Positions 14,124-64,000 of a stretch of DNA of 64,000 nucleotides are shown here, in pieces. The stretch comes from Saccostrea cucullata (lineage: Eukaryota). The notes below the pieces were generated by a model. It searched no databases. It was not told where the DNA came from and worked only from the letters and a program-made list of their open reading frames with translations. The translations under genes were made by a program, and so were the position numbers. The stretch is from NCBI RefSeq assembly GCF_032062105.1, contig NW_026933830.1, positions 372,001-436,000 on the forward strand, in the 5' to 3' direction. Each line of letters opens with the position of its first letter. Position 1 is the first letter of the stretch.

Positions 14124-15479
14124 CCTCAAATCTTTCACTTTTCATACCATTTTCACACCTATTCGCGTTTACCGGGGGGGGGGGTGTCAGTGTTTTCGAA
14201 GGGGGGTCCATGGTAACTTTTTTTCTTGCTTTAGAATATACATTTTTTAACCTTGTAAATTCCACCCCCTTGACCCCCCTCTAGATCTTCGCATGCATAA
14301 AACATACAGATACTCCGGTAAATGTCCTCACAGGTAACATACAGATAAAAATGGCTTTTTCTACACTTTATATTATATACTTGAATAAATAAGAATGAAA
14401 TATTGCACAATTATTAGTAAATCGCATATAGCAAAAGGAATTCAATATTTTTTTTTTATATAGCTAATAGTCTATACCAAAAAAACTGATAAAAATCTAG
14501 AGAATTTTAGGGTTCAATATCTTGGCATTTTATTGAACGCTGAGTTTGTATTATGAGTATGCCTGGAAACATACTGAATACGAGTGTTCAATATCAAATG
14601 CCCAGTTATAAACAAAAAAATGTTGTCTGATCAATCTTGGAAAGGCATTCAAAAAAGATAGCAGCAACCATGCAGGTAAGATGTGTTTATTTTCACACAA
14701 AAATGAAATTTTTGATTTAAAATTTAGCATGTATCAGCCCAACTAAAGCCTAAATAAACAAATAATGTTTTTTAGGTCATATGGAATGATGCGATATTGA
14801 ACACTGACAGGACAGGCGTTAACTTGAATAATGATACTAAAAAAACAAGAGTTATTTAGTTTGAATAATTATTATAATTCATTGGGAAAATGTTTTAGCT
14901 ATATTATATGAAGCAGTTATTGAACTTATATTGGTGAATATTGGCACAAGTTCACTGTAAAAATGTACTAGCAAGCTTGTGTATTTGTACAGCCAACTTG
15001 TGCCAGTATTCACCAATATAAATTCAATTATAACTCTACAATGTCATTAAAACAAATTTGATTACATACATTAGGAGTCTGCTTAAAAATTCAAATATAT
15101 ATAAAATATGTAACACAGTATGTCTAATGTTAAACTAAATCCTGCGTTGTTTTTTTCAGCTATTGTAGCCATAGTGGTTCCGGAGTTGGACTTGCTTATC
15201 TCCCTTGTGGGGGCACTGGCCAGTAGCTCCCTGGCTCTGGTGTTCCCTCCCCTGATAGAAATCCTTACCTACAAAGCGCCCAATGAAAAAATATCTCCCA
15301 TCATCCTCGTAAAAAACATTGTTATAATGTCGTTTGGGATTTTTGGATGTGTGGTTGGAACTTGGATATCTATAGATGAAATTATCAAGAAAAGAAATCC
15401 ACAAACTACAACTCTGATGCCATTTAGTTCTACAACTGCAAATCCTAGACATAATTTAACTTTGTTCAACAGTTCATGA
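2562..15479 (+). CDS. Proton-coupled amino acid transporter, SLC36/PAT family (~516 aa, 9 coding exons)
   Basis: GT-AG exons 2562-2806, 3655-3745, 5394-5482, 5817-5909, 6035-6119, 6916-7191, 7435-7613, 13078-13250, 15160-15479 join in frame (1551 nt). Motifs [73 protein letters not shown]. Probable non-coding first exon ends at 1804 (GTAAGT at 1805). Confidence 0.92.
2782..3245 (+). repeat. Tandem repeat seeded on the SLC36 first-coding-exon end and donor
   Basis: Repeated GCTCCCAGACAG(A/G)CTCAAAATCTC|GTA.GT...AACAGTTAAGTAAACTCA, ~82-bp higher-order unit, ~5.5 copies. Confidence 0.85.
4962..5388 (+). mobile_element. Helentron-associated non-autonomous element (HINE-like)
   Basis: T-rich ends, 5' hairpin TGCCCCCCTTCGAAGAAGGGAGGGCA, GTCT microsatellite seed, two ~165-bp internal units, 3' GGAGGCATAAGTGTTTTACAAACATCTCTTGTT. 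Confidence 0.7.
6107..6790 (+). repeat. 20-bp minisatellite containing the SLC36 exon end and donor (CAAACAG|GTAATGT)
   Basis: About 34 copies of (C/T)AA(T/G)GTCAAACAGGTAATGT starting inside exon 6035-6119. Confidence 0.95.
8353..10104. mobile_element. Fold-back element with TTAA target duplication (Kolobok-like)
   Basis: TTAA at 8349-8352 and 10105-10108. Termini GGAGGAATGCCACACCAACTTTTTATTTTATAGATCT ... AGATCTATAAAATAAAAAGTTGGTGTGGCATTCCACC. Imperfect inverted arms extend ~500 bp. Confidence 0.75.
8898..9533. mobile_element. hAT-family MITE
   Basis: TIR TAGGGATGTCAA ... TTGACATCCCTA with a perfect 8-bp TSD GTTAAAAC (8890-8897 and 9534-9541). Confidence 0.85.
11776..12549 (+). mobile_element. 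HINE/Helentron-like element with ~170-bp internal tandem units
   Basis: T-rich start, GTCT/GTCC microsatellite, four units containing the palindrome ATGACCTTGACCCAAGGTCAT, 3' hairpin TGTCC...GGACA followed by TTCTAGTT. Confidence 0.75.
13291..14017. mobile_element. Unclassified non-autonomous element with duplicated long palindromes
   Basis: GTTATCCAGGTCCAATCAAGGGTGTA ... TACACCCTTGATTGGACCTGGATAAC hairpin at 13291-13427, repeated at 13590-13691 within a ~300-bp tandem duplication. Confidence 0.55.
14915..15035. repeat. Imperfect palindrome (MITE-like)
   Basis: TTGAACTTATATTGGTGAATATTGGCACAAGTT ... AACTTGTGCCAGTATTCACCAATATAAATTCAA. Confidence 0.6.
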
Positions 15480-23022: not shown

Positions 23023-26268
<3,246 letters not shown>

Positions 26269-59700: not shown

Positions 59701-62407
59701 AACAAAAAGATATGACAATATTTAGCATTAGACTGAAGCTTATCACAGAACTAATACATGTATTTTCTGGCAATAAAAAAATCATTTCCATGCAATTAGC
59801 ATTTAACATCATGCAATCCATATAAAAAGTATGTAAAGATGCAAAGATTATCTTTAATATTGCAGTATTAATGTCTATAATTTATTACAGAAGCACATTC
59901 ATAATCAAGACAATCAGAATATTACTTTGCAATATCATACAAATATCTACTTGGATTAAAATTTCTAGCATCTCTGTCAAAGCTTCATATCTAAATGTAG
60001 CACACAGCAAAATATAGCTAACAAGATCACCATTAAATGGAGTATACATCGTTTATATTGTTTCTCAAAGACCATAGGTGTTATAAAGTTAATGTCCCAT
60101 ACAAGGTGATCGAGTAGGAAATGTGCACACCAGTGCTTGACCCTGGAATCAACATTTAATGACATTTAACCCTTCAACTCTGACCTATAGTAACCCTTCA
60201 ACTCTGACCCATAGTAACCCTTCAACTCTGACCCATAGTGGAATTAGTTTATTATTCACCATTTCCAAAGTGAAGACTTAGGGAGGAACATAGATAGACT
60301 TTGTCATTGTTATTGTTTTGTTGTAGTTGTCAAGTAATTTCCCCATAGAAGTCCAAATGTACTACAAATCAGTCTGAAATAAATATATACAATGTAGTTG
60401 ATCTTTGGTATCTCTAACATTGATGTCTCGAATACGAATGTCGAGATTATTTGGTAGTCCCATCCACTTATTCTTTTATTTTTTTTTTACTCCTGATATC
60501 TCAAATCCTAAGATTTCTCTCGATTTTTTTTCTCGGTCCTTTCGAGTTTGAGATAATGAGGTTTGACTGTCAATAAATTGACTGGGGATTTTTATCATCA
60601 TTACGTATACTCCTAACTCCCTGTTCAATAATATGACTGGGGATTTTTATCATCATTAAGTATACTCCTAACCCCCTGTTGATAAACTTAGTAATCAGCA
60701 ATTAACACTATAGTGCAGCCAAATTAAATTAAGCTGTTCATGTGAACATTTGAGTTTTAAAAAAGGCTAATCTATGTATGATTTTAAAGTCATTTTGTTT
60801 TAAACAGCTGTGTGATATAAAAGCATGTGTAACTCGGATAAAAATTTACTTAAGTTTGCAAGTATAGAAGTGTATGAGGAAACCTCAATAAGCTTTCAGT
60901 AATTAATGTGTGAGATAAAGAGTCTCAGTAAATTTAGGTCATTTTGTCCATTGCTTTACTAGTGTATTAAATATTAATTAAGATTTGTACAGATTTTTGT
61001 TAATGAATTTAAGACGTCAGGAAGATCATGTTAAGTTGAATACAGCAAGTAAATATCAAGTTATTAATTCAATTACTTCGTTAAGTTTTAGCTACTACAC
61101 ATTCTTGCCTGCACAGCCCTGCGATTTATTGAAGTAGCAGTATAACATATAACTCCCCTCTCATTTAAATCAGTTTTTTCCTGCCATTTTTAATGATCCT
61201 TTCCTGTTTTCTAAACTAAGCAGCTATAATATACAACTAATACACAACCCTCCTCAACCAGCTGAATTTACAATATCATATTTATAATGCAAAGCTCCCC
61301 ACTGGCATAGAGTCTAATAATTAATTACAAAGCATATATATATTAAACTTCTGTTTTACATGTAATGCCTGTCACCTTTAAGCATTAGGAGGGATTTTTG
61401 ACCTTACAATATCAGTTATGTAATTCAATCTGACCTCATATTTCTTTTAATCTGTATATATTACGGTGTTATTGTACTGTGTACTTCAAAGCTTGTATTT
61501 ATACATGTAATACTGTAAGCTTTTTATAAATAAACATGCATTATGTACATGTAAATGTCTTATTGTGATAATGCATATGCAAAAAAGGACAATTTTCCAA
61601 GTAGCATGATTTACATGTCTTTATGTAAATGTTAGATCAATACATTCAGTTTTAGAGTTTTAATTCCTCCTGTCTAGAGGAGGAAGGACATTCTCATGTT
61701 AGACATAAAATGGAGGCCAGTCAGACATTTTACATTCCTCACTGCAAAAAATATACACATCAAAAACTCCAAGAGAAAATGGCTACGGCAGGCAAGAGGT
61801 TACGGGGTTACCATGTTTACCACGGATTACCTTATCCTCAATCCCCATTTTATACACCTCGGGGAAGTGTAACAGGGTGGACGGCATTAAGTCTTTGTCA
61901 AATATGCCGTTAACGACCGGCGGAAACGCCGTGAATAAGACATGGATAAACAACAGAAAGAGGCTGTTGAATTGGAGTGAGCCCGAGTATCCGCTATAGA
62001 GCTGGAACCAGAGCATGGTGAACTCAATTCCCTAAAATCAATCAGGAAACAAAACAATTAATGTACAATGATTATACAAAGCAGTGCAGTATTTACCGTA
62101 TCATCAATGCCCATTTTGTAGATATGAGGAAATCGGAGGAGGGTTTCTGACGACAAGTCTTTGTCTAAGACCCCGTTCACCAGAGGGGGAAAAGCACAGA
62201 AGACTACATGCGTGAGCATGGTATAAAGACTGTCAAATTGCATCGATCCCGAGTACGCACTGTAGATCTGGTACCAAAACATGACTAATACACTGATCTA
62301 GAAACAGACGAGATGGGGTTAGAACACAGAAAACAGATCTCAGGCCAGAGTTATCTCCCCATAGTCTGTCTACAGAGTTATACACCTTACTGCTGCACTT
62401 AAACCTT

Positions 62408-62458
<51 letters not shown>

Positions 62459-63923
62459 TTAAAAATCAGTTATGTAAATTAATAGTGTTTTTTTTTTAAC
62501 TGTGTTCATTTTAAAAATTTTGATAATTGTAAAACATTCTAATCTAAATGTAATATTCAGTGCAACAGCAGTTTAAGGTGACCTCTGCCATTTATGGTGA
62601 GGTGACATCAAGAGGAGGTAACTCTAGCCTAGAACCTGGTTAAAATGATTGATGATAATACAAGAAAATCTAGCAACTCATCACACATAATTTCTGTATA
62701 AATATTGTGCAATATCAATTAATATTGTTCAAGTTATTTTTACTTCTCACAACCAAACAATGAGGTATGGTACATGTTCTAATATACTGATTGATATATA
62801 ATGATCTTCATCCACTGAAAATGAACAATCTACATTCTGAGCTTGTTTCACAGTTTTACTTTTAGGTAGTAATCATTTTTCCTTTATGTTTTCTTGTCTA
62901 AAAATTTGGAATTATAAATTCAAAGCAAAACAACTAACTACTTTAGCAACTAGTTACTAAATGTCAGCAATTCTGTTTTGATTTCTTTCAAAAGATATAT
63001 TGTATGCAAAAAATTTGTCAAAGAATGAAATACCAAAAGCATCTATCACCACAAAGTTTTGATGGGAACTACAGTAATATTATGTTGTTATTCTAAATGA
63101 TTCTAAATGATTCATGACTGAATGTGTCAATTTTTTGGTGCCATCATCAGGAAAATAAAATGTGTTCGAATTATAAGATTACCAAAACACAAACATTTAT
63201 TGTTAACAGAAAGACAGATTATAATATTGTTACAAAAAAAATTGTTTTATGCAATATCAACATGCACAATGCACGCCTGGTATTAACAAGAAAAAAGATT
63301 CCCCTGATTTGATCAGTGTGTTAGAAATTTGTGCCATTTTTTTTTTAAAGAGACATAATTTAAGTGGGATCTTCATTTCAAAAATTCAAACAATCATGTG
63401 ATAAGCACAATTGTGACATATATATACAAAAAAAAAAAAAACATTCAGTGATCACAGGTACTTTACACACTTTTATCCTTTCTTCTATAAATTAAAAATA
63501 AAAACATTATTATAATAGTTTGGAGAATTTTTTATTTATGAAAAGAAAGGATAAATAAGTCAAGTGCCTGTGACAGTGATATAAAATATATTCTTTTCAA
63601 CTTCTGAACTTCTGATATTTAAAAATATTCAAACTGTGTACAAACTTATTTTTAGCATAATACAAATCTCATATGTAATTATTTAATAACAAAAAAATAA
63701 GAGCAGAAATGAAGACCTACCAAGCTTTTATAGAACATGAAGGAGGAGAATCGCGCGAGGCGACAGTAACACCAGTGTCCATGGACCAGAAGGAGGCGCT
63801 GGAGAAACATGAAGCGAGAAATGGCAAAATCTGATGCCATGACGGCTTGCATGCCTTCCTGTCCAGAAATCCCAATCCCGATGTCGGCCACCTGTATCAT
63901 ACTGACGTCATTGGCTCCGTCAC
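56773..63923 (-). CDS. Phospholipid-transporting P4-ATPase (ATP10-like flippase), 3' part; gene continues beyond window
   Basis: Exons (minus) 63923-63721 ([38 protein letters not shown]...[10 protein letters not shown]), alternative 62297-62097 or 62031-61831, 59648-59568, 59432-59328, 58588-58401 (NPYWVM...SLFPR), 57001-56773. All phases are compatible. Confidence 0.92.
57600..58430 (-). repeat. ~72-bp tandem repeat of P4-ATPase exon end and donor, with nested G-rich sub-repeat
   Basis: CCTTGG(G) (= CCCAAG|G) at 58400, 58323, 58251, 58180, 58109, 58037, 57927, 57680 and degenerate ~57620. Internal GGGGAGGGGATTATAGCAGATGAT repeats at ~57715-57990. Confidence 0.9.
58661..58834. mobile_element. 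Tc1/mariner-type MITE
   Basis: TA flanks, CAGAAAAACTCG...CGAGTTTTACTG termini. Confidence 0.6.
58930..59311. mobile_element. Palindromic non-autonomous element (unclassified)
   Basis: ~168-bp near-perfect palindrome 58930-59097 with nested sub-palindromes, then TTCTAATGCA...TGCATTAGAA. Confidence 0.55.
61831..62031 (-). CDS. P4-ATPase alternative exon B (TM5 end-TM6), 201 nt
   Basis: AG at 62033-62032 and GT at 61830-61829, phase 0/0. Encodes [48 protein letters not shown]...KMGIEDK. Confidence 0.85.
62097..62297 (-). CDS. P4-ATPase alternative exon A (TM5 end-TM6), 201 nt
   Basis: AG at 62299-62298 and GT at 62096-62095, phase 0/0. Encodes [48 protein letters not shown]...KMGIDDT. Confidence 0.85.
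62409..62454. repeat. (TA)n microsatellite
   Basis: About 22 TA units. Confidence 0.95.
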
Positions 63924-64000
63924 CTGTATCAGATGTAGAGGAAACATTAATTTTTTTTTCAGATGTGTCTTGTATGATATTCCTCTATGATGAATTTAAC

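Follow-up and report, generated by a model that had tools for sequence, protein, structure and literature searches.

The oyster gene described here encodes an ATP10-like P4-ATPase and contains two adjacent, homologous exons, A and B, that code for alternative versions of one membrane segment. On balance, we favour a reading in which the gene splices in either A or B, a block imposed by a short intron is the likely reason, and the two resulting proteins differ in the lipid they take up or in how tightly they bind it. The window analysed, a 64-kb stretch of Saccostrea cucullata DNA, carries the 3′ end of the gene on the minus strand; the 5′ part lies beyond position 64000.

Exon A (62097–62297) and exon B (61831–62031) are each 201 nt long and encode 67 residues, with a preceding AG, a following GT, an open frame and phase 0 at both ends, as the initial annotation had described. 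Our recount agrees with its figure of 38 identical residues out of 67 in frames without stop codons, and 128 of 201 bases match. The two exons have 18 codons in common, show silent changes at 20 and encode different residues at 29. The Nei–Gojobori method yields a dN of 0.32 and a dS of 2.35, which is near saturation, for a dN/dS of ~0.14. Five other oyster species keep 63–67 of the 67 residues of A and 60–65 of those of B (rest of the protein, 90–97%), and the proposal that both copies are under purifying selection is upheld. Both exons match positions 43–107 of the Pfam model PF16212 (E = 1e-18 and 3e-18), and each is identical over 67/67 residues to one S. cucullata RefSeq isoform (A to X1, B to X2). 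The Pfam matches, the dN/dS values and the RefSeq identities together indicate that the pair did not arise by chance.

The pair is flanked by introns of 1,423 and 2,182 nt. The shared upstream exon (63721–63923, minus strand, like all exons of the gene) extends from the GDGAND motif of the P domain into TM5, whose inner half it encodes, and ends in FYKSL, so that the conserved TM5 lysine is encoded here and not by the alternative exons. It was located by tblastn (residues 956–1023 of protein P0008); its 3′ end recurs as a loose end in reads at 62298 and 62032, and its 5′ boundary was placed at an AG. The shared downstream exon (59568–59648, 81 nt, QYTR to AHF) begins the TM7 region and is delimited by read joints at 59648 and 59431/59567 (cut +1). 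It is followed by a constitutive exon of 105 nt (59328–59432; read joint, loose end and translation), a constitutive exon in the late TM region (58401–58588; tblastn and translation, with the 3′ boundary placed at a GT) and the last coding exon, which extends to the stop codon (56773–57001; tblastn and translation). The two isoforms are 1,290 residues long, share 1,223 identical residues outside the swap and differ at 29.

Several other features were seen. A 71-nt minisatellite of ~6 copies (57988–58430) has its start within the 3′ end of one flippase exon and carries copies of that exon's donor site on into the intron. An intronic stretch of 43 nt (60528–60570) is matched by reads that derive from other transcripts and have long, unrelated flanking sequence; it is probably a dispersed repeat. 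Outside the window, proteins P0010, P0011 and P0014 differ from X1/X2 by 7–9 residues net around residues 459–522, which marks another alternative segment of the gene, in the large cytosolic loop. Elsewhere, on the plus strand, a repetitive stretch at 43550–44080 is open in three frames, and, judged by their motifs, four long open frames look beta-tubulin-like (24348–26265), ubiquitin-specific protease-like (31695–36592), glucosamine-6-phosphate deaminase-like (50474–50863) and amino-acid transporter-like (15114–15476).

The best non-mollusc matches of the protein are vertebrate ATP10A and ATP10D, and all named non-mollusc matches among the best 120 are labelled VA, VD or AT10A, or have no class name. 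P4 motifs are present as GDGAND in the window, DGET and DKTGT in the matching RefSeq proteins and PF16212 in both exons. By these features the gene appears to be a P4-ATPase of the ATP10 (class 5) branch. All oyster sequences aligned have the glutamine at Pro-4 of TM4 (FQTVIP). The TM6 asparagine that binds the lipid phosphate (N882 in ATP8A1, N905 in ATP8A2; PMC12424579, bioRxiv 10.1101/666321) is replaced by histidine in both isoforms and in every mollusc ortholog aligned. The TM5 Lys-Asn pair is Lys-Ser in most mollusc orthologs, whereas cephalopods and Lottia have Lys-Asn. In place of PISL, the mollusc orthologs have PLPL, PLAL or PLPM; both isoforms carry PLPL. Characterised GlcCer/PC flippases have PISL and the TM6 asparagine; here PLPL and histidine stand in their place, and we therefore file the gene as ATP10-like rather than as a GlcCer/PC flippase. 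Judged from these changes, the lipid-binding site appears to have been rewired throughout the mollusc lineage. The N905H variant of ATP8A2 is reportedly nearly inactive, and the mollusc histidine, at an asparagine otherwise conserved among P4-ATPases, tests how essential that residue is.

RefSeq predicts isoform pairs of the same length, identical outside the swapped exon, in six oysters: S. cucullata (XP_062577585.1/XP_062577586.1), S. echinata (XP_061165425.1/XP_061165426.1), M. gigas (XP_011442075.1/XP_011442076.1), C. angulata (XP_052675448.1/XP_052675449.1), C. virginica (XP_022321880.1/XP_022321881.2) and O. edulis (XP_056012522.1/XP_056012520.1). In the five oyster species tabulated, 21 of the 29 differences between A and B are fixed. 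In trees built from the 67 columns, the A clade and the B clade are each fully supported, with a longer stem branch for B (0.68) than for A (0.37); a single clade of A plus B against pearl oyster, scallops and mussels was neither shown nor rejected (p-AU 0.425). In annotated proteins of other bivalves we saw no second version of the exon, only one per species. The annotations covered 11 proteins from five Mytilus species (of 29 cluster members, 15 were listed, and four of these lack the region), 14 from scallops, 2 from Mercenaria, 3 from Dreissena, 4 from Mya, 5 from other assemblies and 1 Pinctada model. The occurrence of both exons in other molluscs, proposed earlier as a check, thus holds for six oyster species and not for the other bivalve annotations: the pair looks oyster-specific rather than mollusc-wide. 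In Mytilus edulis, the X1/X2 models differ at residues 736–763, and the ortholog appears to have a same-length alternative exon of its own there, in the N-domain region of the cytosolic part; a model from M. coruscus has 24 extra residues at this segment.

Alternative use of exons A and B in RNA

Eight of 24 listed RNA runs were aligned to positions 59300–62405, namely three raw-read runs from one study and five contig runs from five studies. From each raw-read run 44–47% was taken in, depth was low, and joints were displayed from three reads per run upwards. Because the aligned stretch stops short of the upstream exon, upstream junctions were scored from the consensus of loose read ends. The reads are mostly 95–99% like the window, and their source is therefore a close relative or distant alleles.

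Each exon was found joined to both flanking exons, and all four junction types were observed. In the three raw runs, exon A is joined to the upstream exon by 3, 5 and 10 reads (18 in total, as loose ends) and to the downstream exon by 2, 3 and 1 reads (6 in total). Exon B is joined to the downstream exon by 9, 4 and 2 reads (15 in total) with another 5, 0 and 3 short overhangs (8 in total), and to the upstream exon by 3 listed reads in one raw run only. Among the joints listed for these runs (at least three reads per run, at low depth) there was neither an A–B joint nor a skip of both exons. Ten reads cover the base 7 nt from the donor of A: six continue into the downstream exon, up to four into the intron between A and B, and at most one is unassigned and might represent an A–B join.

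In three of four further contig runs, A and B occur as separate 202-nt contigs, each run having the B–downstream joint and a loose end of A at the downstream exon; overall, the B–downstream joint is present in four of the five contig runs. The upstream–A junction was seen in all four further runs, in the fourth of which A runs unspliced into B. The upstream–B junction was not seen in contigs, and for this reason the contigs cannot exclude A–B joining. None of the 362 proteins compared has two TM6 motifs.

Of the junctions named in the initial annotation, the four that connect the pair to its neighbours were thus recovered, and the A–B junction is not listed at this low depth. We saw neither use of one exon only, nor constitutive inclusion of both, nor a degraded copy in related species. 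Reads, contig bubbles and the isoform pairs of six oyster species all support the proposed mutually exclusive use, which we consider almost certain.

Residues exchanged in the membrane segment

Ungapped matches to solved chains place exon position n at ATP8B1 959+n, Dnf1 1196+n and Dnf2 1239+n. The alternative segment comprises the outer half of TM5, the exoplasmic TM5–6 loop, TM6 and the next cytosolic loop. Its earlier description as a pair of TM5–TM6 exons is right for TM6 and too broad for TM5, of which only the outer half is included. At the positions of interest, exon A has Val3, Asp22, Thr26-Met27 and His30, and exon B has Glu3, Asn22, Leu26-Leu27 and His30.

Position 22 corresponds to ATP8B1 E981, Dnf2 E1261 and bovine ATP8A2 E897, and is fixed as aspartate in A and asparagine in B. 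Twenty-three other mollusc sequences have aspartate (20), glutamate (1) or glycine (2) and never asparagine here; across 330 non-B proteins of the family, a redundant set, the residue is acidic in 302 and asparagine in 22. The authors of PMC5585164 assign E897 of ATP8A2 to the entry gate, and report that E897D is wild-type-like and that E897Q lowers the K0.5 for PS 2-fold and Vmax 1.6-fold (Table 1). This ~2-fold effect was obtained in a PS flippase with a neighbouring arginine that the oyster proteins lack (PMC5585164). Positions 26–27 (TM in A, LL in B) correspond to MM in Dnf1, L1265/T1266 in Dnf2 and L1148/I1149 in ATP10D. The Dnf2 and ATP10D residues affect transport of GlcCer and not of PC (bioRxiv 10.1101/373712), although the same study states that residues of the GlcCer motif may not be primary coordinators, and in other molluscs the two positions vary freely (LM, LT, TM, LL, MM). 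Position 39, leucine in A and valine in B, is equivalent to L891 in the acyl pocket of ATP8A1 (bioRxiv 10.1101/666321). Sites with fixed changes include the residue that is mutated in human cholestasis (ATP8B1 E981K) and the GlcCer motif of TM6.

The initial annotation had singled out the glutamate that exon B introduces at position 3 in place of valine, and correctly placed it a few residues (five) past the TM5 lysine. This glutamate is fixed in B and occurs in none of the 23 other mollusc sequences and in none of 310 non-B family proteins (a redundant set from which sequences >85% identical to B were omitted). The TM5 lysine is thought to stabilise the helix core together with the TM6 asparagine (PMC4937031). 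In the literature, we found no mutagenesis of the residue equivalent to position 3. Since positions 22 and 26–27 are backed by mutagenesis, we regard them as the better leads and the TM5 glutamate as the weaker one.

Taken together, exon B would remove an acidic residue from the exoplasmic entry gate (Asp22 to Asn), alter the TM6 GlcCer motif (TM to LL) and add a glutamate to TM5. Such a swap would shift head-group affinity, and form B would be the more tolerant of anionic head groups. That the isoforms would differ in affinity in this way, through the entry-gate, TM6-motif and TM5 changes, is in our judgement an even call; a lipid-selectivity switch is plausible on this comparison. No activity data for a mollusc ATP10 were found in the literature.

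A stronger form of this reading, which we consider rather unlikely, holds that splicing rewires the lipid gate itself: in B, the acid at the entry gate would be given up for a buried glutamate in TM5, next to the mollusc-specific histidine, yielding two pumps for different lipid classes that are switched by tissue or intertidal stress. The classes might be, for example, neutral glycolipid or PC for one form and anionic lipid or phosphonolipid for the other. Oysters are rich in a phosphonosphingolipid. If true, this gene would be the first P4-ATPase in which splicing sets a substrate switch within the membrane pathway. PMC12424579 describes the entry-gate basis that separates GlcCer, PC and PS flippases as unresolved. 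Under any reading, the pair is a natural matched experiment, with 1,223 residues held constant and 29 varied, kept over an oyster family (Ostreidae) that is ~180 million years old (PMC12021676).

It is also possible, if somewhat unlikely, that the exons are mutually exclusive but both isoforms carry the same lipids, and that what sets them apart is turnover, stability, assembly with CDC50 or sorting, for instance as a result of changed helix packing in TM5 and the cytosolic loop after TM6. In keeping with this account, the 29 differences extend across the entire exon, with ten of them after position 39. The TM1 and TM4 specificity determinants, as well as His30, are common to both isoforms, and TM5–6 are described as a mostly accessory hydrogen-bond network in lipid transport (PMC11460456, a review; PMC4937031). 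What speaks for a difference in lipid handling instead is that fixed differences fall on two head-group sites defined by mutagenesis.

The short intron between the exons

The intron between A and B (62032–62096, minus strand) is a GT–AG intron of 65 nt. Motif prediction places its branch adenosine, within TTAAT, at 62058, which is intron position 39 and 26 nt from the 3′ end; both the length and this position had been given correctly in the initial annotation. The only other good branch motifs are closer to the 3′ end, at distances of 10 nt (a CTGAT, 55 nt from the donor) and 6 nt. In the species of the reads, the branch motif is TTAAC and the intron measures 63–66 nt. The Magallana intron is estimated at ~69 nt from an exon A read-through peptide, assuming homology between the last codons of that peptide and the 3′ end of the intron in the window. 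Unspliced contigs cross the intron in all five contig runs, as do up to four raw reads, and in three runs retention amounts, by a crude measure, to 20–32% of the contig depth of exon A. In the window, the retained intron meets an in-frame stop after 12 codons, and RefSeq contains intron-retained models of 1,113 residues (X4) in M. gigas and C. angulata that end after TM6.

We propose that a 65-nt intron would be too short to be cut out, so that either A or B is spliced in. With the branch point ~39 nt from the donor of A, U1 and U2 would be too close to assemble jointly, and A could not be joined to B; transcripts that keep both exons would be dead-end by-products in which the intron, with its stop codon, is retained. 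A donor-to-branch threshold of ~50 nt is applied in PMC5740500 and PMC7969005, and short unspliceable introns between exons of 3n length are described in C. elegans (PMC4165533). That the predicted branch point blocks A–B joining, with the retained-intron transcripts as a by-product, is probable, and we grade the steric mechanism as likely. The initial annotation had likened the spacing to that of alpha-tropomyosin. The steric argument stands, with a predicted 39 nt falling below ~50 nt and an intron that is often retained, but the parallel is partial: tropomyosin blocks joining through a distant branch point (PMC7969005), whereas here the whole intron is short.

Two other causes of exclusion were set aside. 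Frameshift decay was rejected, as a product with A plus B is in frame; for the same reason, decay cannot hide double inclusion. Incompatibility with U12 splicing looks unlikely, since all three donors read GTA[AG] and lack the U12 consensus.

An unlikely account attributes exclusion to splicing regulators or RNA pairing and treats the short intron as incidental. It can draw on the fact that animal introns of ~65 nt are near the lower limit and not impossible (PMC4463651); for oysters, the literature searched, PMC13644364 included, gave no figure for minimum intron length. Against it, the intron stays within 63–69 nt across alleles and genera (the upper value being the Magallana estimate) and is retained at the depth given above. 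A scan of 21 segment pairs for competing (docker–selector) RNA pairing found none clearly above shuffled sequences and one marginal case.

The high retention and the X4 models could also be taken as dosage control, in which the cassette sends many transcripts to the intron-retained stop form and B is weakly active or regulatory. The longer stem branch of B and its unusual glutamate would fit this idea, which we nevertheless regard as very improbable, given that B keeps 60–65 of 67 residues across genera and that, in these reads, its joins to the downstream exon are no rarer than those of A. Finally, the notion that one of the two exons is a decayed copy or the result of misassembly is already refuted by the splicing of both in reads and by the isoform pairs of six oyster species; in addition, 11 of the 12 exon differences listed in the comparison of the reads with the window (40 rows displayed, 21 hidden) are synonymous.

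Comparison with known systems

The class of homologous, mutually exclusive exons is well described, and the oyster pair is implicit in automated annotation. In the openly accessible literature searched, we found no paper on the oyster isoforms of this gene, nor one on paired exons for the membrane pathway of any P4-ATPase; the oyster gene is the only P4-ATPase case we found in which the membrane pathway is swapped. For human ATP8A1, we presume from a listed peptide and the domain layout that a comparable event falls in the actuator region. This event is a vertebrate-wide tandem duplicated exon substitution (event 29, PMC8373072) and, like the oyster pair, consists of homologous alternative exons in a P4-ATPase; it exchanges ~25 residues of that cytosolic region, in contrast to the membrane pathway of the oyster gene. 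The human catalogue contains two P4-ATPases with such events, internal in ATP8A1 and N-terminal in ATP10B (PMC8373072), and ATP11C has C-terminal variants (PMC11775268).

With respect to splicing, the oyster pair resembles OGDH exons 4a/4b, alpha-tropomyosin exons 2/3 and C. elegans egl-15 and let-2, all with a donor-to-branch distance below ~50 nt (predicted in the oyster) and exon lengths of 3n (PMC5740500, PMC7969005, PMC4165533). In OGDH, distant branch points lie in a longer intron. The oyster gene resembles the C. elegans cases in that its entire intron is short; its branch point is a motif prediction.

With respect to the pump, the TM4 glutamine is common to the oyster gene and the GlcCer/PC flippases, namely vertebrate ATP10A/ATP10D and yeast Dnf1/Dnf2. 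Mollusc orthologs differ from these in having histidine for the TM6 asparagine, mostly serine for the TM5 asparagine, and PLPL, PLAL or PLPM for PISL, and the vertebrate ATP10 sequences compared have a single version of the exon where oysters have two. A parallel within oysters is exon 10 of the alternative oxidase, which is likewise duplicated, alternatively used and different near functional sites; it is a terminal exon with a measured stress switch, whereas the flippase exons are internal (PMC5589949).
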